64,000 bases of DNA from a phage. A program made the position numbers and the translations under genes. The stretch lies in sequence record PZ049694.1; one strand, given 5' to 3'. Below the pieces are notes generated by a model. It did not search any database and was not told where the DNA came from. It was given only the letters and a program-made list of their open reading frames with translations. Of this stretch, positions 2,186 through 60,770 are shown piece by piece. The first letter of the stretch is position 1. Each line of letters starts with the position of its first letter.

Positions 2186-2680
2186 TCACAACTTATTAAT
2201 ATTTACTTTAATTCGCTTTCTTTTCTTGGAAGGAATTTGTTCTGGACCTTTATTTACTACTGCACCTGTAGTTGTTCCTGATGCAATAGCTTGAGGGCTG
2301 CCACCTGAATCACCAGCAACCATATCCTCAAATAAAGGGAGTTCTTTAAATATTTCTTTCTGCTGTTCTTCCGTAATGTTATAGCGTGAAGCTACAGCAC
2401 TCCAGGCAGACATCATTGAGGCCATTCCATTAAGACCTGGAACAGTGCTCATCATTCGCTTCATTGAACGAACTGAAGCATGAAAAGGTGTATAAGCCGC
2501 TTTCTCTTCAGGAGTGGAAGGACGTTTAAGAACACTTCCACGTTCATCGATGATTTTGGCTTCGTATGCTTTCCATTCGGTAAAAGGTTTTTGCATTAGT
2601 CGAATAAACTTATATGCGTAAACAGAATCTATTGCAGTGTTAATAATACCCATAGGTACCTCCTGAGTATATTTAATCAA
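2186..2680 (-). CDS. hypothetical protein (164 aa)
   Basis: Minus-strand ORF in the 61-to-sp interval, tightly packed with neighbours. Confidence 0.5.
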   Translation of the reverse strand: MIKYTQEVPMGIINTAIDSVYAYKFIRLMQKPFTEWKAYEAKIIDERGSVLKRPSTPEEKAAYTPFHASVRSMKRMMSTVPGLNGMASMMSAWSAVASRYNITEEQQKEIFKELPLFEDMVAGDSGGSPQAIASGTTTGAVVNKGPEQIPSKKRKRIKVNINKL

Positions 2681-2870
2681 TTACAAAGATTGCTTTGTCA
2701 CCATTTATATCTGTGACTTCATATGTAGTGCCTTCATACTGTGGAATATTCCAAATTACACCGTCATTAGCTTTTACGCTAATATGGCATTGGTGTTTTG
2801 AAATAACTTCATAATCTTCAAAACTTGTAAAAACACTAATTTTAGAACCAGTGCAAATTGCAGTAGTCAT
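2673..2870 (-). CDS. hypothetical protein (65 aa)
   Basis: Minus-strand ORF, 8-nt overlap with downstream gene. Confidence 0.4.
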   Translation of the reverse strand: MTTAICTGSKISVFTSFEDYEVISKHQCHISVKANDGVIWNIPQYEGTTYEVTDINGDKAIFVID

Positions 2871-2871
2871 T

Positions 2872-3531
2872 TTAACCTCGATTCATAAATGCATTAAATA
2901 TTTGGTCATCGACAGAAATTTCTAATTCGACTTCAATTGCTTCAGCCTTTTCTTCGGGTGGTAATTCGTATCCACACACTACAATTTTTTCATCGATATC
3001 AAAATATACAGAAGCAATATGATTAATGTTATTTTCAGTTAAGTCTAAATCAACATCAACATCTTTTTGACCTACACTTAGAGGATAACTAATACGGGTT
3101 ATTTTATTATCTTTAACAAAGAGTCCACCAACATACTCTGTACTACGTTTGAAGTTTACACGTTTCCGAATTGAAAGATATGATACATCTTTACCGTGAG
3201 CTCGGCTCATAGGACATAATGAATAGCTAGAATAGGAGATGTCAAATCCTACACCTTCAATATGAACCAACGCGTCATGATTAAACCAATTATAATCATA
3301 TGCCAAATCCATTATATTGTAATATGTGAAAGGCACAGGATTAACATCATATGTTGTACCTTTAAAATCTGCCCAGGCAACGATTTCGTTATCTTTAACA
3401 ATTACAAAAATTACACCAATATGATATCCGTTATTATTTTCATTCGGCGTTATATTATAACATTGCGCATTAGGAAATTTACCATATTTAAATGGCGCAT
3501 TTTTGTGCATGTAATAAATCATGTTATTCAC
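2872..3531 (-). CDS. hypothetical protein (219 aa)
   Basis: Minus-strand ORF between primase and spackle. Confidence 0.55.
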   Translation of the reverse strand: MNNMIYYMHKNAPFKYGKFPNAQCYNITPNENNNGYHIGVIFVIVKDNEIVAWADFKGTTYDVNPVPFTYYNIMDLAYDYNWFNHDALVHIEGVGFDISYSSYSLCPMSRAHGKDVSYLSIRKRVNFKRSTEYVGGLFVKDNKITRISYPLSVGQKDVDVDLDLTENNINHIASVYFDIDEKIVVCGYELPPEEKAEAIEVELEISVDDQIFNAFMNRG

Positions 3532-5856: not shown

Positions 5857-7299
5857 TTAAAATTTTAACTCATTGGCTAAGCTATCTAGGTCAGCCCGTG
5901 TTGTTTTGGCTTTACCTACGCGTTCCGTACGATTCACCTCTGCCTGACGCATCTGAGCACCTGCGTTTTCATTTACCGTGTTAGGTGTGTTCATTCCTTC
6001 TTGCTCAATCTCAATCCATTTCTGGTTGCCTTTACGTACACCCATTAGGAATTTATTCCATTTATTCTTATCACCATATCGTGATTTGATTTGTTTGATA
6101 AGTTGTTGTTCAGCTTGTGCAAGTTCTTCGGTTTCAATTACAGCCAACATGAAATCTGCCGTTGCCGGTAAACCTGCTGATTCTGCAATATCGCTCATGT
6201 TCATATCCGAAGCATCCCATGCTGCACGTCCTACTTGAGCTGCAGTCCATAGAACTGTTTCAGATTCTACTGCTAATGCACGAAGTTCTTCTGCGATAGC
6301 TTTAACTAATGTGTAGCTATTTTCAGTATAAACTCTGATACGACAAGACCCACAAATACCTAAGTAATCAACCATGATTACGGATGGCACAAAGTTCTTC
6401 TTAAGTTTTAACTCATTAAGCAATGCACGGAATGTATTAGCATTAGCTCCACCAGTAGGATACTGTTTAACTACTAAACGTCCTAATGTGGATTTTGAAC
6501 GCCATTTTTCCATCTTGGCTTTATATTCAGCATAAGATACGTTGCCATCATCGATATCATCGAGCGATACGTCAAGCATGTTTGCATCTATACGCTTAGC
6601 ACAAACTTCTTCAGCCATTTCCATGGAAATATAAAGAACATTATGACCTGTTTGAAGATAATCTGCAGCAAGTGAACAAAGGCCTAAAGATTTACCAACG
6701 TTAACACCGGCCATTAAAACATTCAGTGTACCGGTTTCAGCACCACCTTTAGTGATTTTATTCAAAATGTTTAATTTGAACGGGACCTTACGTGCTTTGT
6801 TCAGATAAGAAAGCCAGCGTGCTTCGTAGTCTTCCATCCAGTCATGTCCAACATAACTATCAAACGAAATTGAAAGTGCTTGACGCATAATATCAGGAAT
6901 AGCTCCTACGTCAGGCATTTTCTTGTTACGTTGTTCTGGAGGTAATTCAGCATTAGACTGAATCTCAATGATTTTGGATGTAGCATTATACATCGCTTTT
7001 TGCTGGACATATTTCTCAGTTTCTTTAACCAACCATTCATGGTCTTCAGGAGTATCAGCCAATTTTTCAATTAGGTCTGAAGTTCCTTTATATTCGGCTT
7101 CAGTTAAAGAACTGTTATCTAAAGCCACCTTTAATGCATTGATAGATGGCATTGCATTATATTCGTTAACGTGGCTCTTTATAATTTTAAAGACGTTTTT
7201 TGCCGGTCCACGCTCAAAATACTCAGAATCCATATAAGGCCAGACCTTAGAAAAATAAGCCTGGTCATATACGAGATGAGACAAAATAATTTCTACCAC
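5857..7299 (-). CDS. 41: replicative DNA helicase gp41 (DnaB-like)
   Basis: 480 aa; Walker A GVNVGKS; extensive match to remembered T4 gp41; GTG start. Confidence 0.9.
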   Translation of the reverse strand: MVEIILSHLVYDQAYFSKVWPYMDSEYFERGPAKNVFKIIKSHVNEYNAMPSINALKVALDNSSLTEAEYKGTSDLIEKLADTPEDHEWLVKETEKYVQQKAMYNATSKIIEIQSNAELPPEQRNKKMPDVGAIPDIMRQALSISFDSYVGHDWMEDYEARWLSYLNKARKVPFKLNILNKITKGGAETGTLNVLMAGVNVGKSLGLCSLAADYLQTGHNVLYISMEMAEEVCAKRIDANMLDVSLDDIDDGNVSYAEYKAKMEKWRSKSTLGRLVVKQYPTGGANANTFRALLNELKLKKNFVPSVIMVDYLGICGSCRIRVYTENSYTLVKAIAEELRALAVESETVLWTAAQVGRAAWDASDMNMSDIAESAGLPATADFMLAVIETEELAQAEQQLIKQIKSRYGDKNKWNKFLMGVRKGNQKWIEIEQEGMNTPNTVNENAGAQMRQAEVNRTERVGKAKTTRADLDSLANELKF

Positions 7300-7308
7300 G
7301 ATAACTCC

Positions 7309-7650
7309 TTAAAAGAATTTAAATTTTTTCTTGGTCCTTTCATTAAAAGCTTGTTGTACTTGCATTGTAACACATTTTTCAACATGCGGTGCAAGTTCTG
7401 CTTTTCTGTCCTGGTCAAGAACTGCAAAGTCCATTACGATTTTACCATCAACCCAGTCTAGTTTTGTAATATAGACTATATGATGAGAACCATCTTCAAG
7501 TGTAATCAGAATCTCTTGAATGACATTTTCCATTGCTGAACGGATAATTTTAAGAGATTCATTAAACACTCGTTCTTTGCGAATGTCTTCCCCTTCCGAA
7601 GAAGGGGATTCATCAACGATTTCTAGATTTAAATCATCGAGATTATTCAT
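7309..7650 (-). CDS. hypothetical protein at the position of T4 gene 40
   Basis: 113 aa after moving start to internal ATG clear of uvsX; assignment by synteny only. Confidence 0.4.
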   Translation of the reverse strand: MNNLDDLNLEIVDESPSSEGEDIRKERVFNESLKIIRSAMENVIQEILITLEDGSHHIVYITKLDWVDGKIVMDFAVLDQDRKAELAPHVEKCVTMQVQQAFNERTKKKFKFF

Positions 7651-8815
7651 CGAAATCTTCCATTTCGTCAAGGTCGTTTTCTATATCTGCTGCAGACGGA
7701 GCATCAGAAGTTTTAACCGGAACTTTAGTTGTTGCTTTGCAATTAATAAGGTCGTTAACAGCATCATCAACTTCTTTAATAGAAGAGATAGCACCTAGTT
7801 TATATTTAGTTTCAATTGCATCTCGGAAAGGTTTGTGTTTAAACAACGGTCCCCAGAATTCTACACAATCAGTAGCTTTAGCACGCCATGATTTTTCTTC
7901 ACGAATCATTTCACCTGTTTCTTCGTCAAGGAATTCTCGAGCATACCAACCAGCTTTAGGCTTAACCACAAAACCGATTTCAGTTGCCATTTCTAACAAG
8001 CCACTGAATGGGTCGATACCACCATCGAAATTAACCGTGATTGGGAAAGTAGATTTCTCTTTAACTGTACGAGATTTTTCTGCTTTCAACGTGAAGTCAT
8101 AACCGGTCAATTCTGTACCTTCTTTAACCTGACGTTTAGAGATAAAGAATACAGTGTTAGCAGAGTAAAGAATACCTGTACCACCACCCATAATCTCTTT
8201 AGGATACAATCCGCCAATTTCCATTGCTGTATGGTTAATTGCAACACACGGAATATCTTTAATAGTCAGATACGGTGTCACAATACGGAAAAGAGATTTA
8301 AGTGCCTTAGCACGAGACATATCACCTACGACTTTCTCGTTCAATGCATCTTCGGTTTCTTTCTTAGATGCAGTATTACCGATTGAATCGATAAAGATAA
8401 TAACTTTATCACCGCGTTCAATAGCGTCAAGCTGATTAGTCATATCAACTTTAAGTTGTTCGACAGATTGAATCGGAGTATGAACTACACGGTCTAAATC
8501 AACACCCATTGAACGAAAATAAGATTCTGAAGCACCAAATTCTGAATCATAGAACAAACAAATTGCATCTTTATATTTCTTCATATATGCTGCAACCATG
8601 GTCAGCCCAAACAACGTTTTAAAGTGTTTAGAAGGAGCAGCAAAAATAGTTAAGCCTGATTGCAACCCGGCATTCAGTGCACCACCTAATGCAATATTCA
8701 ACATCGGAATACGAGTAGGGACTTCATCACGATTATTAAACAGCTTAGACTTAGTCAAGTCTGCAGTCATTTTAGAAGTAGAAGCTTTAATCAGACGAGA
8801 TTTTAAATCAGACAT
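7643..8815 (-). CDS. uvsX: RecA-like recombinase UvsX
   Basis: 390 aa; N-terminus MSDLKSRLIKASTS and core motifs as remembered for T4 UvsX. Confidence 0.9.
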   Translation of the reverse strand: MSDLKSRLIKASTSKMTADLTKSKLFNNRDEVPTRIPMLNIALGGALNAGLQSGLTIFAAPSKHFKTLFGLTMVAAYMKKYKDAICLFYDSEFGASESYFRSMGVDLDRVVHTPIQSVEQLKVDMTNQLDAIERGDKVIIFIDSIGNTASKKETEDALNEKVVGDMSRAKALKSLFRIVTPYLTIKDIPCVAINHTAMEIGGLYPKEIMGGGTGILYSANTVFFISKRQVKEGTELTGYDFTLKAEKSRTVKEKSTFPITVNFDGGIDPFSGLLEMATEIGFVVKPKAGWYAREFLDEETGEMIREEKSWRAKATDCVEFWGPLFKHKPFRDAIETKYKLGAISSIKEVDDAVNDLINCKATTKVPVKTSDAPSAADIENDLDEMEDFDE

Positions 8816-8914: not shown

Positions 8915-9463
8915 TTAACGAGCCCATTTGATAATTTCTGTAATCAAATAATTACGTTCGCTTGCATTAAATCCTATAACTTTGTTAGCACCGTCATGAT
9001 TAAGTAATTGATACGTTTGGATTTTGTTATGAATTGCAAACTCTTCAAAATATGAAATGACTGTATTAAAACCGAACGAAGACAAAGTAATAAGGTCGTC
9101 TTCAAAACTTTCAGTCATTTCGTTACGTGTTAAAATAATTGTGAACACATCATGGTTTTGGCAAAGACGAACATAATCCTGTTCATAAACGTCAAGAACC
9201 GAGTCCGCATCTTGTCGAATACGTCCATAAACCCAGTTACTAATATATCCACGGTCTAACAGATAAATCTTAGTAGGGTCTAAATAATTCAACATCGTTT
9301 CGAAACAGCCAACTTCATTTCGAGACTTAACATCGAAACGTCCATCAACTGTTCGTTTAGGGAAATCAATCTTTACATATCTTTCACTAATTTCCATTAT
9401 GTCATTAATGAAAGTTGTTTTACCAGCATTATCCGGGCCATCTACTAAAATAATTTTAGCCAT
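8915..9463 (-). CDS. P-loop kinase, thymidylate/dNMP-kinase-like
   Basis: 182 aa; Walker A GPDNAGKTT; LLDRGYISNWVYG resembles the TMP-kinase DRx..S..Y motif. Confidence 0.55.
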   Translation of the reverse strand: MAKIILVDGPDNAGKTTFINDIMEISERYVKIDFPKRTVDGRFDVKSRNEVGCFETMLNYLDPTKIYLLDRGYISNWVYGRIRQDADSVLDVYEQDYVRLCQNHDVFTIILTRNEMTESFEDDLITLSSFGFNTVISYFEEFAIHNKIQTYQLLNHDGANKVIGFNASERNYLITEIIKWAR

Positions 9464-9464
9464 T

Positions 9465-10364
9465 TTATTCCTCGATTACGACATCTTCATATTTAGGTAT
9501 ATTATACGGTGAAGAAATTAAAGCATTAAAGTAGATGAACTCACCAAGACCTGGATGGAATACTTCTTCAGGATTTTCGAAATATTGAATCTTCGGTCTT
9601 CCTTTAAGAATTTGATAGTACTCAGTTTTAGTTGGTTTAAAAATTCGAATCAGTGCTTCTTCAGGATACTTATTTCTGTCGAAGCTATTATTTGGATCGG
9701 TTATATAAAGCGGTTGACCTAATTGAATTGCGCATTCAACCACTTGTTCAAAACGATAACACGGGTCACTAATTCGAAATGGATGAAAAATACCATCTAG
9801 ATGAATAGGGGCCAAATCACCTACAAGACGCTGCATGATGGAAGGACGTATAACTTTCTGCGTTACGATAATCTTATTACCATCTGCACCAGCGTTAACC
9901 AGCACTTCCTTTTGACGTTTATTCAACACAGTAGTTTGAAGTGAACGATTAACCGACAACATATCGGTTTTTAAGAATTCGTCAATATAAAAACGTGGTT
10001 TATTAGGGTCTGCAGTGATATTGAAATTGAATTCCACATCAAAAGCGCCGTCATATCCAGTGATATCTGTGATTAGAAAATCACAATCATAATAAGCAAT
10101 TAATGAATCAACCACAAATTCATTTTCAGACCAGAAATATTTACGAGTGTTATACGCGTTATCTTTATACCATAATGGAACAAACTTAAATTCTGGGAAA
10201 AGACGTTCACATTCTTTAATATCAGATGCATTACGTGGATATGTAATCACATCACCCGGATTAGCACGGTGCAAATGAAGTTGGAAGTTGCCATCCTTAA
10301 GGATAGCATACTGTCCAGTTTCATAAGACCGCATACTCAAGATAGGTACGCGGAAAATAGCCAT
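9465..10364 (-). CDS. hypothetical protein (299 aa), candidate sugar transferase
   Basis: Occupies the slot where T4 has beta-gt; no recognisable motif; start overlaps the 42-like stop (TAATG). Confidence 0.5.
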   Translation of the reverse strand: MAIFRVPILSMRSYETGQYAILKDGNFQLHLHRANPGDVITYPRNASDIKECERLFPEFKFVPLWYKDNAYNTRKYFWSENEFVVDSLIAYYDCDFLITDITGYDGAFDVEFNFNITADPNKPRFYIDEFLKTDMLSVNRSLQTTVLNKRQKEVLVNAGADGNKIIVTQKVIRPSIMQRLVGDLAPIHLDGIFHPFRISDPCYRFEQVVECAIQLGQPLYITDPNNSFDRNKYPEEALIRIFKPTKTEYYQILKGRPKIQYFENPEEVFHPGLGEFIYFNALISSPYNIPKYEDVVIEE

Positions 10365-11080
10365 TAGTCAAGGAATCCTTTAACATAATCAAAATCACGT
10401 TCAAACACATGGGCACTTACCATGGTATGAGTATAATCACCAACTTCTACACCACATTCGTTAGCGATATAATGAAGTAATTTTCCTTGGAGATAAAAAT
10501 CTAACTGCATAACAACAGCACAGTTCTGAGAACGCATATGGCAGTGGGTATAAAGCTTACCATCACGAATATAATAAGTCACTGAGTCAGTACATGGATA
10601 TTCAAGCGTTTCGTCCGAATCAAGCAAAGCCTGATCTGAACTTTCAAGAATTTGAAACACAACTCTTCGTGAATTAGGTTTCTCTTTAAGTTCTTTTAGA
10701 AGAGCTGGTAATTGGGCCGCAATGCGAGGACCATAGAAAGTGTTGAAGTTCGCCGGCAAAACATCTGATTTTGGTTTAGAAATAAATTTAGCGACATTAG
10801 GATATGCCTTAAACGCTTCTTCTGCGTTGGTACCACCAGAAATCATAAACTTCCAGAAGTCTTCGGCATATTCATAAGAGATGCGGTTAATACGTGGGTC
10901 AGTCATTTTGAATGATGACGGAGTGTCAACAACTACTGTCATAGACCCAATTTCATTACAACGTCCAATACGAGAATCAGTTACGAATTCCGGGTTTTCT
11001 AAAATTTCACGATTGACTGCTTTAAATGCGGTTTGAAAATCTGCGGCTTTGATATATTTCATTGTGTTATGTTTTCCCAT
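10364..11080 (-). CDS. 42: dCMP hydroxymethylase-like enzyme (thymidylate synthase family)
   Basis: 238 aa; TS-family active-site region EYPCTDSVTYYIRDGKLYTHCHMRSQN; divergent from remembered T4 gp42. Confidence 0.7.
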   Translation of the reverse strand: MGKHNTMKYIKAADFQTAFKAVNREILENPEFVTDSRIGRCNEIGSMTVVVDTPSSFKMTDPRINRISYEYAEDFWKFMISGGTNAEEAFKAYPNVAKFISKPKSDVLPANFNTFYGPRIAAQLPALLKELKEKPNSRRVVFQILESSDQALLDSDETLEYPCTDSVTYYIRDGKLYTHCHMRSQNCAVVMQLDFYLQGKLLHYIANECGVEVGDYTHTMVSAHVFERDFDYVKGFLD

Positions 11081-11359: not shown

Positions 11360-12520
11360 TCATTCCGGGTACCTCAAAGCGTCATCAGAGTTAGTTATAT
11401 CAATAATAGATATAGAGTTTTCTGCTAACCCGTTTTTAGATAATTGACGTTTATAATATCTTTCACAATATGTACACGTCGTCCCGCAGATTTCATTAGC
11501 ACAATCGAAATCTGGATGTCTGAACCACCTTTTTTCTAAAAAGCCATCTAACAAAGAGGTTTCAATATTTACTGTATGTGAAAACTCTGTCTCATTTTCA
11601 AGAGTGAAAATGGTCTCTAAAGGCTTCCACAGTTCTAACAAATTACCTTCAAACTTTTCAGAAGCGTATGCTTCAAGAACTTTCAAAATGTAGTCTGTGC
11701 TACCTGTACGTCCTGAAACTTTGAATTGAGTGATACCAATATCATTATAAAGTTTCAAATCTTGAGGACGAACAAAACGAGTTCTCAACCAGTTAAATGG
11801 ATCTGTATCACGAGCTTTAATACAATGTTGCATTGGATATCCATTTAAAGATTTGGCATCATCTACTGTAACATCGGTGCTATGGAAAATATAGCAAGAG
11901 TCACGATAACTACAATGTGTTGTATACCCTTTACCAGCATTAGAACAGAACTCATTTACAAGAACTTCAAATATTATATTGTTCTTATTACAAAACTCTG
12001 CTGCACGCTTCAGGAAAGAAACTGAACGGTTTTTATGAATTCCGCAGCAGACCTTTTTGATATTATATTGGTCATGCAAGTATTTGATTTGAGTTACAGC
12101 ATCGACATGTAGAATTGTTGAAACTTCAATCTCAATGTCTTTATTGACTTCACGAACAATTTCCATAACAACAGGGTTAGCGATAGTAATACGCCATACG
12201 CCTATTGACCAAAGATACTGAACATAATCCTGAATAGCTTTCTTCTTCCACTCAACTAGTTCTCTTTTTGAACCAGGATTTATCGTGTTGAGTGTATAGT
12301 TAAAGCAAATACCTAATTCGTTACAACGTTTAACGTAATCTTCTAACATCTTTTTGTCAACGTCAGGAAGCCTAAAATCAGGTCTGGCTGCTACAAAAGC
12401 CATTTCTCTTGTAGAGCCGTATACTTCATTTATCAAGCTATTAGGATAAGTTTTATTGAGCTCTACGATTTTATCAAGAAGAGCTAAATCAAAATTCGTT
12501 CCGATTTTAAAAGTATTCAT
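11360..12520 (-). CDS. Cys-rich enzyme of unknown function (386 aa)
   Basis: 13 or more Cys; C-terminal CANEICGTTCTYCERYY contains a C-x3-C-x2-C pattern; possible Fe-S or metal site. Confidence 0.5.
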   Translation of the reverse strand: MNTFKIGTNFDLALLDKIVELNKTYPNSLINEVYGSTREMAFVAARPDFRLPDVDKKMLEDYVKRCNELGICFNYTLNTINPGSKRELVEWKKKAIQDYVQYLWSIGVWRITIANPVVMEIVREVNKDIEIEVSTILHVDAVTQIKYLHDQYNIKKVCCGIHKNRSVSFLKRAAEFCNKNNIIFEVLVNEFCSNAGKGYTTHCSYRDSCYIFHSTDVTVDDAKSLNGYPMQHCIKARDTDPFNWLRTRFVRPQDLKLYNDIGITQFKVSGRTGSTDYILKVLEAYASEKFEGNLLELWKPLETIFTLENETEFSHTVNIETSLLDGFLEKRWFRHPDFDCANEICGTTCTYCERYYKRQLSKNGLAENSISIIDITNSDDALRYPE

Positions 12521-12577: not shown

Positions 12578-12979
12578 TTATAGATTCGGTTTATATGATT
12601 TAAATGTTTCGAATTCGCCTTTATTCATAAGAGCTTTGAATTCGTCAGGACGCATAGCTTTGTCGTCGATAATCCAATCATATACTGGTTTATGTGTTAG
12701 CAAATTATGGTACTTCAAGCCAATGTTTGCCAAGTTCTGAATCAGACTTGGGAGAATGTCAATTGCTATACGACCAGGACCTACTGACTTCATACCGCGA
12801 GCAGTGTAAAGCGTTATTGTATGCCCTGCATCATACAGGGCATTAATGGCAGACACCATTTCGACGTCTGGTTTGAAGTTCACGTAATCACGATTGTTAT
12901 TCCACTCTGTTATACAATCATCGACATCAAAACAAAGATTAAGCATGTTTTCTACACGGTGCATTAGATTCGTTCCCAT
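12578..12979 (-). CDS. HAD-superfamily phosphatase (small, 133 aa)
   Basis: Motif I FDVDDCIT (DxDxT); overlaps the upstream gene by 16 nt. Confidence 0.65.
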   Translation of the reverse strand: MGTNLMHRVENMLNLCFDVDDCITEWNNNRDYVNFKPDVEMVSAINALYDAGHTITLYTARGMKSVGPGRIAIDILPSLIQNLANIGLKYHNLLTHKPVYDWIIDDKAMRPDEFKALMNKGEFETFKSYKPNL

Positions 12980-14649
12980 TGATGAGTGATATCGCCACCG
13001 ATTGGACGATAAGAAACACCAGTTTCTTTATCAGTTAGTACCCATTTACCAGGATTTTTTGTAATCAGAGTAGCCGTTACAGGTTCTGCTACGTCATAAC
13101 TAATAGAGCCGTCTTGAAGTACACGGCCCATGTTACGTAATTGTTTAGTCAGAAGTTCCATACCTTTATAATATGCGGCTACCGCTTTAAGTGGATTATT
13201 CTTGAAATAACCACCTAATGCAATCCAGATAATTGCAACTGCCAAATGATGATACTCGTTAAACGAACTCATCTTTCCATATTTGTAAACTAATGGATTG
13301 ATGTTAATAGTCACATTACAAGTTGTTTCATCAATAGTAAACTGTCCCCAGGTCGGATTAGCGTTGAATTCATCATACCCTGAAACAGCATAAAGCACTT
13401 TAGCTTCGTCATACAATTTTGGTCCGTAAATCTTGGTTTCGCCAAAATATCCACGAGGGTCGATAAACTTGACTTCGCCATTATCAGTAATCATAGTATT
13501 ACTGAAGTTCGGGTCACCATGAATAACAGAGTACTGTCCCTGAGAACGGTTATGATAACGAATAAGGTGTTCTAAAGCTTGTTTCAGCATTGGCTTCAGA
13601 CGCCCAATCTTAGTGTAGTTCACATGTGTGATTTTACCAAATGAATCAATCAATGGTTGAATACTTTCACAACGATCAATAACTTTCGTATAGAACTCTT
13701 TAGTGAAATCACGACGAACAGTTTCAGGACTTACAAAATAAGTGTCTGTGCTGAATTTCAGTGCATCTAAAATTGCATCAACAATTTGTGGACGAGCAAG
13801 ACTTGATTTGGATTTAATATATTCAAATGCCGGCTTACCTTTAATGCGTTCCATTTCAAAGTTATTTTCATTAACAGAAACTAACTGAGGAACTGAATCT
13901 GATTTCACTTTAAGATACCATGAAATCTCATCTTTCTGAAGAGCTCGACCCTGTTCGGTTAATGCGAATTTAGTTACAGTTTCTTCACCGATTTCAACTG
14001 CATTAAAACTACGATTAAGTTCACGAACTTCATGAGCTTTTTCAAGTTTAGGCATATCACCTAAATCAATTAGATTCATAAGCTCTGATTTATTGAATGC
14101 ACCGCTGTAAAGGAATTCTACGAAATCACGTCCTTTGCAGTATTCATGAATTTCCTCATCAGTAGAACCCATATAGAATTCCCAGTCTTTGAACTGATAA
14201 ATTCCTACAACATTACCACCTGTTGAACCTACGTTAGTGATATTTTCACCGTCGAAATTATATCGACATTCGTCGCCCTTAACATAGATTGCGTTAACAT
14301 TCCAAGACCATGAACCAAAATCGGGAATAATATCACACCAGTTAACAATTACATTATGGCCGTTTAAATCTTTGTGTAATTTAGCAAGAGCATAAGCAGA
14401 ACCATACGCTTCATCAACTGTACGAATAGTCACATTGAACCCTTCTTGCTCACAATAAGCTCGAACAGTTTCAGCAAATTTTGAATGAACTACTACAATA
14501 ATTTCGTCTGCGCCAAGGTCAGAATAAATTGTATACAAATTGCTCAGAATAGTGTCTTGTTTATAGTTAACAAGCACCTTAGGAATATGATGCGTTATTG
14601 GATACAAACGAGTTGCCAGTCCAGCACCAAGAATAACAGCTTTTTTCAT
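12964..14649 (-). CDS. bifunctional sugar-1-phosphate nucleotidyltransferase / APH-type kinase
   Basis: N-terminal ILGAGLATRL (GxGxR of NDP-sugar pyrophosphorylases such as LicC, MurU, RmlA); C-terminal VIHGDPNFSN Brenner motif and FIDPRG (APH/choline-kinase fold). Confidence 0.75.
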   Translation of the reverse strand: MKKAVILGAGLATRLYPITHHIPKVLVNYKQDTILSNLYTIYSDLGADEIIVVVHSKFAETVRAYCEQEGFNVTIRTVDEAYGSAYALAKLHKDLNGHNVIVNWCDIIPDFGSWSWNVNAIYVKGDECRYNFDGENITNVGSTGGNVVGIYQFKDWEFYMGSTDEEIHEYCKGRDFVEFLYSGAFNKSELMNLIDLGDMPKLEKAHEVRELNRSFNAVEIGEETVTKFALTEQGRALQKDEISWYLKVKSDSVPQLVSVNENNFEMERIKGKPAFEYIKSKSSLARPQIVDAILDALKFSTDTYFVSPETVRRDFTKEFYTKVIDRCESIQPLIDSFGKITHVNYTKIGRLKPMLKQALEHLIRYHNRSQGQYSVIHGDPNFSNTMITDNGEVKFIDPRGYFGETKIYGPKLYDEAKVLYAVSGYDEFNANPTWGQFTIDETTCNVTININPLVYKYGKMSSFNEYHHLAVAIIWIALGGYFKNNPLKAVAAYYKGMELLTKQLRNMGRVLQDGSISYDVAEPVTATLITKNPGKWVLTDKETGVSYRPIGGDITHQWERI

Positions 14650-14690
14650 GTTGTGGTCCTCATTGGTAAGTAGGAGTATTGTACACTATT

Positions 14691-14834
14691 CTAGTTAAAG
14701 CATTCATACTTTGCTTGTAGTCCAATCATAATCCATCCAATTACAAGTGTCGGAATCATTACTGGAGCCGTTAAGCTCCAGTAGATAGTCATGACAAGCA
14801 TCAATAGTAAAAGTCCTATTGTTATTGCTTTCAT
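14691..14834 (-). CDS. small hydrophobic protein (47 aa)
   Basis: MKAITIGLLLLMLVMTIYWSLTAPVMIPTLVIGWIMIGLQAKYECFN; ATG overlaps the SIS gene stop (ATGA); below track cutoff. Confidence 0.35.
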   Translation of the reverse strand: MKAITIGLLLLMLVMTIYWSLTAPVMIPTLVIGWIMIGLQAKYECFN

Positions 14835-15466
14835 TGTTCGCCTCGTAACATGGCACCTAGTGCACCGCCAGGGTGGAACTTAAGGAAGTCATTAGAGGTA
14901 AATCCACGTTCAGACGAAAGGTTGATAGCAAACGTATCGATAAGCGCTAACAACAATGTAGTGGACATGGTCGGAGCCAGAGAATTCTCATCGACCTCTA
15001 CCGCGATGCCTGTACAGAAAGAGTAATCAAAAAGGGCTTCATTTTCTTGTGGAATGTCTGGGTTACAATGCAACAGAATTTGTTTGACGTTCGGACGAAT
15101 CATTTTAAGATGCTTAGCCACGCCTATCATTTCTTCAGTTTTACCAGAACGACTAATATGAATCAACACATCATTAGGCGCAATGAATCCTGCATCACCG
15201 TGAGAATAATGCCCAGTGTTCAAGTACATACTCGGGATACCGAGTGAAGCAAATGTCTCAGAAGCTTTAGTTGCAATATTAGCATTCTTACCAACACCTG
15301 TAATAATTACTCGGCTTTCATAATTACTAAGTCCCGGACGTCGAAGAGTTTCTAGAATAGCATTATAACGAGCAGGGTTTTGACTAATTACTTTGGCCAT
15401 AGCGGCCAAAGAAGAAGCTTGTTTTATGATTGCGTCAATAGCGATAGTAATAGGAGTAGTTTTCAT
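14831..15466 (-). CDS. SIS-domain sugar-phosphate isomerase, arabinose-5-phosphate isomerase-like (no CBS domains)
   Basis: 211 aa; SIS motif ITGVGKNANIA; C-terminal FLKFHPGGALG matches the KdsD/GutQ/KpsF signature. Confidence 0.7.
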   Translation of the reverse strand: MKTTPITIAIDAIIKQASSLAAMAKVISQNPARYNAILETLRRPGLSNYESRVIITGVGKNANIATKASETFASLGIPSMYLNTGHYSHGDAGFIAPNDVLIHISRSGKTEEMIGVAKHLKMIRPNVKQILLHCNPDIPQENEALFDYSFCTGIAVEVDENSLAPTMSTTLLLALIDTFAINLSSERGFTSNDFLKFHPGGALGAMLRGEQ

Positions 15467-21674: not shown

Positions 21675-23363
21675 TTATGAAACAGTCATTACCGTAAATC
21701 GTCCAACTTTGCTCATCTGAAGATGTTGTCCATAACGTTGAGGGTCATGGTCTCGATGAGAGATAATGAACACATTAGTATTTTGTAAACTTCCAAGAAT
21801 GGTATCTATAGCCTTAACAGCCTCAGAATCGACAGCACCATCAAAAACCTCATCAAGAATCAGAGTGTTGATTTTAACACCAGAGACCTTTTCAGCAATA
21901 TCTCGCCATGTAAACAACAATGCGATATCGATACGTGCCTTTTCACCTTGACTAAATGAAGCATAACTAAAATCTTCACGACCACGTGATTTTATAGATT
22001 CATTGAATTCTTCGTCAATAGAAAACACGTAATCAGCTTCCATGATTTTAAGATAATGGTTAATCTGCTTATTGAACAAAGGCACGTATTTTTTAATGAT
22101 AGCACCTTTAATACCAGAATCTTTTAACATATCTGTGATAATACCACGATGGTATTTTTCAAGAACGATATCAGATTTTGTTTTAATGATTTTATCAAGT
22201 TCTTTTTGAAGCAAAGCTATCTCATCGGCATGGTCGATAAATTCCGCCGAGGCTTGTTCTATTGCAGCTTTAACTTTCTTAGCTTTATCAATAGTGGCAA
22301 TCATTGCTTGTTTCTTGGTACGAATATCAGATGCAAGGTCCTGTTTAGTCTTAACATTAGCTCTATATTCGTCCACTAGGACACTCAGATTATCTCTGTG
22401 ACATGTAAGTTGCTCGAATGAGTGATTACATTCATGAAGCTTATCGGTAATCTTAGAGACAATAGGATCACCCTGGTGCAACTGTGATGCACAAGTAGGA
22501 CATGTACCGCCGTCATGATACATCTTAATAACTTTGTTATATGAGTCAATTTTAGATTTAATCAAGAATGCTTCTTGTCCTATCTTGTTAAATGCCTCAG
22601 TAGGGTCTTCATCAAGAACGATATTAAGTAGTCGCTCATTAGCTTCTTCAATTTCTGCTTTTAATGAACGAGCTTCTTTGGCTAGGTCGTCATACATATT
22701 CTGTAGACGCGCTACATTATCACCAGATAATTTCTTTTGACGTTCGATATTCTCGTTATAAATCTTAATTTGTTGGATAACACCATCTTTCTTGGCATCG
22801 AGAACTTGTCCCTGGGAATTAAGTTCTCGAACTTGAGACTTATTGATTTTATCCATTTCAGCGAGTGTTCCAACTTCTAATAAGTCTTCAACAAGCTTTC
22901 TGCGAGCAGGGGTGCTAAGAGCCATGAAAGGGGTATACCCTGCCGTCCCAAGCACAACGATTTGTTTAAAAGACGCGTATGACATTCCGATGCTACGTTC
23001 AAATTCTTCTTGGAAGTCACGACTGCTGGCAGATTCATCAAGACGAACACCGTCAACGGAGATTTCGAAAATATTAGGCTTTTGGCCACGTTTAATGAAG
23101 TATTTTTTACCATCAAATTCCATCCAAAGCTCAACTAAGAGCTCTTTCTTGTTCGTGCTATTAATGATTTGTCCTTTCTTAACATCACGAAATGGTTTAC
23201 CGAAAAGTCCGAAAGTAATGGCTTCTAACATCGTAGATTTACCACCGCCGTTTTTACCAGTGATTAATGTCTTTTGGACTTTATCTAATTGGATGTCAAT
23301 AGGATTCCCACCTACCGACATGATGTTTTGATAACGAACACGATTTAATTTAAATGATTTCAT
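21675..23363 (-). CDS. 46: recombination endonuclease subunit gp46 (SbcC/Rad50-like)
   Basis: 562 aa; Walker A GKNGGGKST; central coiled coil; C-terminal ABC signature region. Confidence 0.9.
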   Translation of the reverse strand: MKSFKLNRVRYQNIMSVGGNPIDIQLDKVQKTLITGKNGGGKSTMLEAITFGLFGKPFRDVKKGQIINSTNKKELLVELWMEFDGKKYFIKRGQKPNIFEISVDGVRLDESASSRDFQEEFERSIGMSYASFKQIVVLGTAGYTPFMALSTPARRKLVEDLLEVGTLAEMDKINKSQVRELNSQGQVLDAKKDGVIQQIKIYNENIERQKKLSGDNVARLQNMYDDLAKEARSLKAEIEEANERLLNIVLDEDPTEAFNKIGQEAFLIKSKIDSYNKVIKMYHDGGTCPTCASQLHQGDPIVSKITDKLHECNHSFEQLTCHRDNLSVLVDEYRANVKTKQDLASDIRTKKQAMIATIDKAKKVKAAIEQASAEFIDHADEIALLQKELDKIIKTKSDIVLEKYHRGIITDMLKDSGIKGAIIKKYVPLFNKQINHYLKIMEADYVFSIDEEFNESIKSRGREDFSYASFSQGEKARIDIALLFTWRDIAEKVSGVKINTLILDEVFDGAVDSEAVKAIDTILGSLQNTNVFIISHRDHDPQRYGQHLQMSKVGRFTVMTVS

Positions 23364-24859: not shown

Positions 24860-24903
24860 ATTATTTCCTCATTAGTTAATTCATTCTATCATCCGTTTAT
24901 AAA

Positions 24904-24931
24904 GCAAAAAAAGGAACTCCGAAGAGTTCCT
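24904..24931 (-). terminator. rho-independent terminator
   Basis: ggaactc-cgaa-gagttcc hairpin (UUCG loop on minus RNA) followed on the minus strand by U7. Confidence 0.65.
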
Positions 24932-32125: not shown

Positions 32126-32595
32126 TTTAAACTCTTTCTAAGCTGCTTTTTGAATGAAGCTATTAATTGTGTTTTAGTATCAGATTCATTATATTCAAAT
32201 CCTCTTTGAAGCATCTCAGCCATCATTTCCTCTTTACCTAGTCTTGAGAACTCTTTAGTTTTGTCTGGAACAAAATTAGGATGGATATTATTATCAGAAT
32301 AATCTTGTTTCAAATAAGCAAGAAGAGCTTCAAGCCATTCGAGGTAGTCGACATCACGTCCTTTAAGACCGGAACGGTTGAACTTATGCTTCATTTGACC
32401 TTCTGCTGCGTTGCACAGATTACAGAGTAATCCACGAACTCTACCGGCTTTTGGCCCGTTTAATTCATGGTCGTGGTCAAGATGGTTACCTTGAACATCA
32501 GGGTCTAATTCACGGTGGCAAATAGGACACTTACCATTCTGTGCATCATAAAATTTTTGTTTTTCTTCTTTATATTTTGCGCCTGATAATAACAT
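32122..32595 (-). CDS. 49: Holliday-junction resolvase Endonuclease VII (gp49)
   Basis: 157 aa; near-identical to remembered T4 Endo VII (GNHLDHDHELNGPKAGRVRGLLCNLCNAAEGQ). Confidence 0.92.
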   Translation of the reverse strand: MLLSGAKYKEEKQKFYDAQNGKCPICHRELDPDVQGNHLDHDHELNGPKAGRVRGLLCNLCNAAEGQMKHKFNRSGLKGRDVDYLEWLEALLAYLKQDYSDNNIHPNFVPDKTKEFSRLGKEEMMAEMLQRGFEYNESDTKTQLIASFKKQLRKSLK

Positions 32596-45243: not shown

Positions 45244-45722
45244 TCAACAATCACAATTTCTAGTTTAGTGGAATACGTATCTAAAATCTCTTCGATGACA
45301 TCCCAGTTTCCACCACCAATACCTGCACCAATTCTTGGCATATAAATTACAGGCTTTGTTATCTTATTCTTTCCGAATTCATTTAATTCTATTATACAAT
45401 TCATTAAAGCATAGTACTCAAAATTAGGTCCCGGCTCAAACTGTGTATAAAGATTAAAGCAATAAGCTTTATGGGTCTTAAAATATTTTTCATAAACCGA
45501 ATAAGTCCCGAGTTTAGACTTGTCTCCGAATTCGGTTTGAAGTTTATCGGCTTCTAAAATTTTTGGATAAGCCTTTGCTAATTGTCCTGCCACACCAGCG
45601 CCCATTGTATGAAAACAATTACACCCATGAGCAATATTATTACCTTTAGAAAACAGGGCGACAATATCGCCCTTGATATAGTTTTTAATCACTTGCTGCA
45701 AGTCCTCTAGTATAAGAGTCAA
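45225..45722 (-). CDS. macro-domain protein (ADP-ribose binding/processing fold)
   Basis: NIAHGCNCFHTMGAGVAGQLAKA and PRIGAGIGGGNWD resemble macro-domain motifs; TTG start in track. Confidence 0.55.
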   Translation of the reverse strand: MTLILEDLQQVIKNYIKGDIVALFSKGNNIAHGCNCFHTMGAGVAGQLAKAYPKILEADKLQTEFGDKSKLGTYSVYEKYFKTHKAYCFNLYTQFEPGPNFEYYALMNCIIELNEFGKNKITKPVIYMPRIGAGIGGGNWDVIEEILDTYSTKLEIVIVDWEPLL

Positions 45723-60175: not shown

Positions 60176-60254
60176 TAAATAACTTTCTATTATGAAAGGC
60201 ACTTTAGAGCACCTTTGGTAATAGAGGGTATGAATTAATAATAACACATAATTC

Positions 60255-60770
60255 TTAAAGCAAATCAATCATTTTAACAGTCGGCAAAACAATTTCTTCT
60301 TCAATATAAGCGAATTCAACACGTTCAACTACACGCAAGAAATCATAGTCGTAGTATTCAGAAGCATAGCCAAGAATATCAATAAGGCCTTGGGATATCT
60401 CATCGCCTTTCACAAAGAACAGGTCGAATACACGCGATTCGTCTTCTTCAGATTTATTACCAAGGTCGACTTCAATATCAAAGACCTTTTTAATGAATTC
60501 TGGATAAAGCTGGTCTGAGAACAGTCCTTCAACCAAGTATTCATAGATTAAAAGCGAGCAATCACTGAATGGTGTATTACCACAGTAACGTTCAGCTTTA
60601 GTGCTAGAATGACGACTCTTAAATTTCTTCAAGAGATATTTAAACTGTTGGAGCTCATGCTCTTCTACACCAAATAATGTTTTGGTTTTATAGTTGTCGC
60701 CGTCATTTTCCCAAGTAGTGACATCAATTACGTAACCTTTAGGAATTGTACTGCCTAAACAAATATTCAT
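60255..60770 (-). CDS. hypothetical protein (171 aa)
   Basis: Minus-strand ORF. Confidence 0.5.
   Translation of the reverse strand: MNICLGSTIPKGYVIDVTTWENDGDNYKTKTLFGVEEHELQQFKYLLKKFKSRHSSTKAERYCGNTPFSDCSLLIYEYLVEGLFSDQLYPEFIKKVFDIEVDLGNKSEEDESRVFDLFFVKGDEISQGLIDILGYASEYYDYDFLRVVERVEFAYIEEEIVLPTVKMIDLL

Follow-up and report, generated by a model that had tools for sequence, protein, structure and literature searches.

A fused nucleotidyltransferase and kinase gene in a T4-like phage, very probably the Mosigvirus orthologue of AfhE

Described systems that pair an anomeric kinase with a nucleotidyltransferase

L-fucokinase/GDP-fucose pyrophosphorylase (FKP) and the arabino/fucokinase-pyrophosphorylases of Leishmania carry a pyrophosphorylase at the N-terminus and an anomeric kinase at the C-terminus; the kinase of such enzymes has the GHMP fold, and the two activities salvage free sugars in consecutive steps. 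In HldE, a kinase of the ribokinase (PfkB) type occupies the N-terminus and is followed by a cytidylyltransferase-like transferase. The enzyme pairs LicA/LicC and AmgK/MurU have the two folds found in the phage protein described below, a combination that also reportedly occurs within a single chain in the fused LicCA of Treponema denticola. The pairs begin with an unphosphorylated compound, the product of the kinase being fed straight to the transferase. HddC, a heptose-1-phosphate guanylyltransferase (PDB 5xhw, 6jq8), acts after a kinase and a GmhB-type phosphatase. With GmhA and GmhB, HldE makes ADP-heptose in the order SIS isomerase, anomeric kinase acting on a distally phosphorylated sugar, HAD phosphatase and nucleotidyltransferase, so that kinase and transferase are fused despite catalysing non-consecutive steps (PMC10948575).

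The closest described system, however, lies in phages related to RB69. Thomas et al. (2018, PMC6024577) showed that RB69 ORF053c and ORF052c are one gene of 561 aa and proposed that it takes part in making UDP-arabinose. The RB69 product, gp52:53, has since been modelled, with an N-terminal domain resembling MurU and LicC and a C-terminal domain resembling APH, choline kinase and glucosamine kinase, and D-arabinofuranose (D-Araf) has been found in RB69 DNA by NMR (Lee et al., NAR 2026, PMC13326640). According to the portions of PMC13326640 that cite He et al. (Nat Chem Biol 2026), the kinase of AfhE converts D-arabinofuranose 5-phosphate to the 1,5-bisphosphate, and the HAD phosphatase AfhF takes off the 5-phosphate, after which UDP-Araf is formed by the transferase domain. 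In phage Thanatos, TH1_060 is essential for phage growth; the purified protein, supplied with xylose-1-phosphate (a different sugar), gave no UDP-xylose with any NTP (PMC12838424).

The gene and its orthologues

The window analysed here, meaning the whole stretch of 64,000 nucleotides of sequence record PZ049694.1, derives from a T4-like phage, as the genes flanking the cluster (UvsX, gp43 DNA polymerase, RegA and gp62/gp44) indicate, and the closest genomes are those of Mosigvirus (RB69-like) coliphages, at 98.5–98.7% DNA identity. A scan of the window for open reading frames (ORFs) found positions 12964..14649 of the minus strand to be a single uninterrupted ORF of 561 aa; the opposite strand of this interval held no ORF of at least 80 aa, and an antisense gene was accordingly rejected. 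A match to phrog_4098 spans the whole protein. The intact 561-aa ORF is also present in ~150 Mosigvirus genomes. The division of the gene into p053 and p052 in the GenBank record of RB69 is due to one extra C, a sequencing error in NC_004928, which in our own alignment was present in that record and absent from the window; apart from this nucleotide, the protein aligned to RB69 p053 plus p052 over its entire length. These two facts rule out the single ORF as an artefact of assembly.

AfhE of phage HY126, ORF53_52c (gp52:53) of RB69 and gp82 of DLP3 are the same gene in sister phages, with the same domains and neighbours. HY126 XAN60479.1 (AfhE) is identical to the protein at 542/562 positions (96%) over the full length; it is the sole homologue in the HY126 genome, the gene order of which is identical to that of the window. 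Identity to the HY126 and RB69 enzymes together lies between 96 and 99%, and TH1_060, the Thanatos orthologue, is 54% identical. The differences from AfhE, 20 substitutions and one indel, are clustered at residues ~190–266, in the linker and the N-lobe of the kinase. It is very probable that this Mosigvirus gene is orthologous to AfhE of HY126 and gp52:53 of RB69, and that it encodes a bifunctional enzyme of a four-step pathway to UDP-D-arabinofuranose; folds, residues, orthology and context are drawn from the sequence and a structural model, and the activities from the literature on the orthologues.

The Shine-Dalgarno sequence of the gene, GAGGA, lies at 14657–14661, and just upstream of the gene is a putative middle promoter of the MotA type (TGCTTTA, 12 nt, TACAAT; 14678..14702, minus strand), named by comparison with the T4 promoter consensus. 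The window has 12 matches to the MotA-box pattern where 1.77 would be expected, while a scan for sigma-70 promoters gave no enrichment (12 sites, 11 expected). At the other end of the gene, a C-terminal tail of residues 508–561 (12967..13128, minus strand) was conserved only in members from T4-like phages, homologues of ~500 aa spanning only ~89% of the query; it was modelled with a pLDDT of 73–82. For the full-length protein the AlphaFold model reached a pLDDT of 93.2 and a pTM of 0.89. No close solved structure of the protein was present among PDB sequence matches.

Two catalytic halves in one chain

The N-terminal half (residues ~1–205; 14035..14649, minus strand) is a sugar-1-phosphate nucleotidyltransferase domain, on the combined evidence of Pfam, profile search and Foldseek. 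It scored 39.1 bits against Pfam NTP_transferase (PF00483), above the curated cut-off of 21.2. Its best single-sequence match in the PDB was LicC (1jyk; phmmer, E 1.9e-5), in an alignment that placed GLATR on LicC GLGTR and K24 on the conserved lysine of LicC. When solved structures were searched with a profile of the 45-sequence family, HddC came out best (6.9e-14), followed by LicC (1.4e-11), with mannose-1-phosphate guanylyltransferases and RmlA also matched. Foldseek comparison of the AlphaFold model returned RmlA, HddC, MurU and GMPPB at E ~1e-8 and TM-scores, on the target, of 0.5–0.7, and assigned the half a Rossmann-like nucleotidyltransferase fold. The signature loop, ILGAGLATRL (residues 6–15; 14605..14634, minus strand), is followed by HIPKVL (14572–14589, minus strand), which carries K24. 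G10, R14, K24, D106, D195 and D198 are invariant among the 45 homologues.

The C-terminal half (residues ~212–507; 13129..14016, minus strand) is a kinase domain of the APH/choline-kinase fold. In the Pfam scan of this particular sequence, matches to APH (PF01636 and its clan) were sub-threshold only; 8/16 members of the family matched Pfam APH, the best with E 8.5e-8. The model shows a bilobal kinase fold, and NahK, maltokinase and LicA are among its fold matches. In alignment, the HGDxxxxN...D segment is in register with kinase catalytic loops: VIHGDPNFSN (residues 375–384; 13498..13527, minus strand) supplies H377, D379 and N384, and FIDPRG (13450..13467, minus strand) supplies Asp397, the equivalent of the DFG aspartate, and then the invariant R399. 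From the pattern of the family, D397 would be a ligand of the Mg ion. K227 (the beta3 lysine), E241 (the alphaC glutamate), D379, N384 and D397 are invariant in the 45 homologues; with the fusion relatives added, these residues and H377 are all invariant or nearly so. The catalytic residues of both halves are unchanged in the 45 homologues and in 15 multi-domain fusion relatives. Beyond the ATP lysine, six further basic residues (R213, K322, R326, R399, K417 and K488) are invariant.

These results bear out the original prediction, made from the sequence alone, of an NDP-sugar pyrophosphorylase and an APH-fold kinase in one polypeptide of 561 aa, which agrees with ORF scan, profiles and Foldseek alike. 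VIHGDPNFSN is indeed the catalytic loop of the kinase. The prediction had also read a GxGxR motif in ILGAGLATRL; the position and the assignment to a nucleotidyltransferase were right, although the signature does not follow GxGxR to the letter: it reads G-x-(G to A)-T-R...K, with alanine in place of the second glycine (G10-L-A-T-R14...K24). The likeness that it drew to LicA/LicC and AmgK/MurU finds its counterpart in the presence of LicC, LicA, MurU and NahK among the sequence or fold matches. Finally, it had called for structure prediction followed by Foldseek; once run, these gave RmlA, HddC and MurU for the N-terminal half and LicA and NahK for the C-terminal half, and not unrelated families.

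Despite the parallels in architecture, membership of two described classes of fused enzyme was rejected. Scans with Pfam and NCBIfam gave no PfkB domain and no cytidylyltransferase-type domain, so that only pathway logic is common to this protein and HldE; here the kinase is of the APH fold, an RmlA-like transferase occupies the N-terminus, and the substrates are a pentose and UTP as opposed to the heptose and ATP of HldE. Nor is the protein of the FKP class, there being no GHMP match in the Pfam scan and the fold of the kinase being APH-like. HddC, for its part, differs from the phage protein in that it stands alone and is specific for GTP and for heptose.

Neighbourhood, pathway and wider family

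The gene lies within a cluster transcribed from the minus strand that contains all the context of the AfhE family: a SIS isomerase, a HAD phosphatase, a thymidylate-synthase-like dCMP hydroxylase and a glycosyltransferase. Upstream is a SIS-domain D-arabinose-5-phosphate isomerase resembling KdsD and GutQ (14831..15466; Pfam SIS; NCBIfam KpsF/GutQ 2e-32 and KdsD 7e-31; PDB 3etn, 2xhz). The gap between the two holds a small ORF for a hydrophobic product of 47 aa (14691..14834), which overlaps the stop codon of the SIS gene as ATGA and is annotated in HY126 too. Directly downstream, the gene for the HAD phosphatase of 128 aa (12578..12964), the orthologue of AfhF, is probably translationally coupled to that of the fused enzyme, its ATG overlapping the TAA of the latter (TAATG); the phosphatase matches PDB 9iqw at 100% identity, and RB69p051 and HY126 XAN60478.1 are its equivalents in position. 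Further along come a protein of the Peptidase-U32 family (11360..12520; Pfam Peptidase_U32, with a weak match to UbiU) and a thymidylate-synthase homologue (10364..11080), near-identical to PDB 9iqc/9ir2/9iqu, which as a dCMP 5-hydroxylase makes the acceptor base (function according to PMC13326640). A protein of 299 aa (9465..10364), the equivalent of RB69 gp46:47, is the putative first DNA arabinosyltransferase and hence the consumer of UDP-Araf (synteny; phrog_3891; PMC13326640). A thymidylate-kinase-like P-loop protein (8915..9463; phrog_761; RB69p045 is annotated as thymidylate kinase) marks the edge of the cluster.

Taken with the literature on the orthologues, this arrangement suggests a pathway of four steps. 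Ribulose 5-phosphate of the host would be converted to D-arabinose 5-phosphate (Ara5P) by the upstream SIS isomerase; the APH-fold domain would then use ATP to phosphorylate the anomeric C1 of Ara5P, giving arabinofuranose 1,5-bisphosphate; the adjacent HAD phosphatase would remove the 5-phosphate to leave Araf-1-phosphate; and the N-terminal domain, of the RmlA/LicC/MurU type, would join this to UTP to form UDP-Araf. Phage glycosyltransferases would thereafter place arabinose on the 5-hydroxycytosine of phage DNA, shielding it from host nucleases. Retention of the 5-phosphate would hold the sugar in its furanose ring during phosphorylation at C1, and, the ring being locked in this manner, neither a pyranose-furanose mutase nor a phosphomutase should be needed.

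In the best-supported reading, which follows the AfhE/AfhF literature as cited in PMC13326640, the two activities of the enzyme are non-consecutive, with a phosphatase step between them, and the starting compound is a sugar 5-phosphate rather than a free sugar, in contrast to LicA/LicC and AmgK/MurU. The original prediction had proposed that the polypeptide could take a free sugar to the NDP form in two steps, one directly after the other, a scheme which the AfhE/AfhF route, as given in PMC13326640 with reference to He et al., contradicts; its guess of D-arabinose as the sugar was right according to the AfhE literature (PMC13326640). Novelty, which it had implied, is lost: the finding is correct but already known, the gene was described and its function predicted in 2018, by 2026 the folds had been assigned and an orthologue had been characterised, and the neighbours have been crystallised. 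Since all of this is contained in literature from 2018 to 2026, the window contributes a further allele but nothing new to the biology.

That the enzyme might nevertheless work consecutively, on free D-arabinose stripped of its phosphate by the HAD protein and passed from anomeric kinase to transferase, is improbable. The same pair of folds does operate so in AmgK/MurU and LicA/LicC, the fold matches of the kinase half include NahK, maltokinase and LicA, and the labels of the steps in Table 1 of PMC13326640 (Araf5p to Ara by the phosphatase, Ara to Araf1p by the kinase) fit such a route. The main text of that paper, where it cites He et al., instead gives Ara5P to Araf-1,5-P2 to Araf-1-P for AfhE and AfhF, and the best match of the HAD protein in the AlphaFold database is GmhB, a bisphosphate phosphatase (Lee et al., PMC13326640). 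On chemical grounds, free D-arabinose would be mostly pyranose, whereas the product is a furanose; and the six invariant basic residues noted above would suit a phosphorylated substrate, although this last point is only suggestive.

There is also a slight chance that the architecture has been turned to another sugar or nucleotide in this phage, given the mosaic patch that separates it from AfhE in the N-lobe of the kinase and the existence of remoter relatives that are joined to a cupin isomerase and probably act on another sugar; against this stand the near-identity to the HY126 and RB69 enzymes, the D-Araf detected by NMR in RB69 DNA (PMC13326640) and the isomerase for Ara5P that adjoins the gene. 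Hardly credible is the proposal that the N-terminal half, as a glycosyltransferase of the GT-A type, would itself transfer the sugar. An NCBI conserved-domain comment on RB69ORF053c does read ‘glycosyltransferase family A superfamily’ (Thomas et al., PMC6024577), and TH1_060 is retained as a glycosyltransferase candidate in the Thanatos paper (PMC12838424), but sugar-1-phosphate nucleotidyltransferases, marked by the signature G-x-(G/A)-T-R...K, account for every sequence and fold match of this half. Moreover, the custom HMMs that Thomas et al. used for glycosyltransferases scored the RB69 protein poorly (PMC6024577), and the cluster has separate GT-B transferases (PMC13326640).

As an orthologue of AfhE, the enzyme would supply the activated sugar for arabinosyl-5-hydroxycytosine, a DNA hypermodification that protects RB69-like phages against restriction enzymes. 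The modified base also alters sensitivity to other defence systems, which matters when phages are selected for therapy and when their genomes are engineered, while the pathway itself would offer a rare sugar donor, UDP-D-arabinofuranose, by a compact enzymatic route.

The fused family is large, comprising 557 cluster representatives at E ≤1e-30. Homologues of ~35% identity, on contigs of 159–350 kb, keep the order transferase-kinase, HAD phosphatase and thymidylate-synthase homologue, with SIS and glycosyltransferase genes nearby. In proteins of 890–1010 aa, HAD, SIS, transferase and kinase domains are joined in one chain, and these four-domain fusions, which retain all the catalytic residues together with R213, K322, R326, R399, K417 and K488, tie the four activities together in the Rosetta-stone manner. 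In other relatives a cupin isomerase takes the place of the SIS domain, which implies another sugar. We suggest, tentatively and as the less likely case, that the fusion of transferase and APH-fold kinase may mark a module, general among viruses, that makes NDP-sugars directly from central sugar phosphates (by isomerase, anomeric kinase, distal phosphatase and nucleotidyltransferase) and dispenses with phosphomutase and ring mutase, extending beyond T4-like phages to phages of 160–350 kb and to giant-virus-like contigs.

The occurrence of the four-domain and cupin forms on giant-virus-like contigs is the sole possibly new point, and a peripheral one; if it is true and the forms are undescribed, it predicts that viruses infecting eukaryotes have NDP-D-arabinose or donors akin to it. 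The contigs bearing the four-domain and cupin-containing relatives carry giant-virus hallmarks, either MutS with HNH, Rpb2 and Rpb10, or RING, NADAR and Pif1. A match to Indivirus in BFVD also points to a giant-virus link.

Domain fusions in distant relatives and a conserved module in large phages

The NTP-transferase and APH-like kinase domains combined in the target protein recurred in larger fusions, in which HAD, SIS, NTP-transferase and APH-like kinase domains were joined in single proteins of ~890–1010 aa. Judged by predicted domain content, one such four-domain protein would suffice for the whole four-step route from Ru5P to NDP-arabinose. One of them, P0084, is encoded at 8001–10781 of L003 (contig JACCDH010973257.1 of assembly GCA_013558355.1); the others were P0088, P0089, P0091 (from a eukaryote transcriptome), P0092, P0096 and P0109. 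Gene neighbours of P0084 encoded MutS (with HNH), Rpb2, Rpb10 and Autophagy_act_C, and by these genes the contig looks like part of a giant virus.

A variant fusion, in which transferase and kinase were followed by a C-terminal cupin, was represented by P0108 (786 aa; contig L010, 7001–9361) and its relatives P0106, P0111 and P0113. The cupin part weakly matched mannose-6-P-isomerase. The contig carrying P0108 is giant-virus-like, with RING, NADAR, DUF1796 and Pif1 genes, and next to P0108 it encodes an epimerase+HAD fusion and two more NDP-sugar epimerase/dehydratases. Possibly, the cupin variant applies the kinase/phosphatase logic of the target pathway to another sugar.

Genes were kept together as a module in the contigs of two distant large phages, L006 (350 kb) and L008 (159 kb), comprising SIS, glycosyltransferase, transferase-kinase, HAD, a thymidylate-synthase homologue and an EndoIV-like gene. 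Flavodoxin_2 and UDG-like genes lay beside the module in both, and the flavodoxin-like gene would fit the flavin-dependent cytosine hydroxylase.

Allelic differences, C-terminal tail and database records of the target gene

Differences between the window/RB69 allele and AfhE of HY126 (L002) crowded into one patch (window 13850–14080, minus strand; DNA alignment columns ~575–800), spanning residues ~190–266, the linker and kinase N-lobe; outside it, the gene was ~99% identical to its HY126 counterpart. The patch looks, from this alignment, like a recombination mosaic. The C-terminal tail (residues 508–561; window 12967–13128, minus strand; conserved pattern KW.L.D.ETG..Y.P......W) was found only in T4-like phage members, was absent from homologues of ~500 aa, and was modelled with reduced confidence (pLDDT 73–82).

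The RB69 reference record (NC_004928, L001) still holds two split genes in the cluster, p046/p047 and p052/p053 (L001 positions 2598–3498 and 6095–7781), which are single ORFs of 299 and 561 aa, respectively, in the window. Because that record is split, the only target entries in UniProt and BFVD are a pair of partial sequences, Q7Y585 and Q7Y586.

Neighbouring genes and candidate MotA-box promoters

Between isomerase and target (window 14691–14834, minus strand) lies a very hydrophobic 47-aa ORF, MKAITIGLLLLMLVMTIYWSLTAPVMIPTLVIGWIMIGLQAKYECFN, annotated as hypothetical in HY126, which overlaps the isomerase stop via ATGA. The HAD phosphatase (12578–12964, minus strand) matched NCBIfam TIGR01689, capsule biosynthesis phosphatase, and shared 100% identity with PDB 9iqw (‘Capsule biosynthesis protein’); its label in GenBank records and PHROGs, ‘phosphoheptose isomerase’, is a misnomer. 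A peptidase-U32-family protein inside the cluster (11360–12520, minus strand) weakly matched UbiU, of the O2-independent hydroxylase family; its RB69 counterpart, RB69p050, is a ‘sugar or heterocycle reductase’ in Table 1 of Lee et al. (PMC13326640).

Scanning the window for the T4 MotA-box middle-promoter pattern (TGCTTYA-N11-13-TANNNT) recovered 12 copies where 1.77 were expected. One (14678–14702, minus strand) lies directly 5′ of the target start codon; other minus-strand pattern matches were at 9501–9525, 13372–13397, 22189–22213, 24883–24906, 32188–32213, 45386–45411 and 60238–60262.
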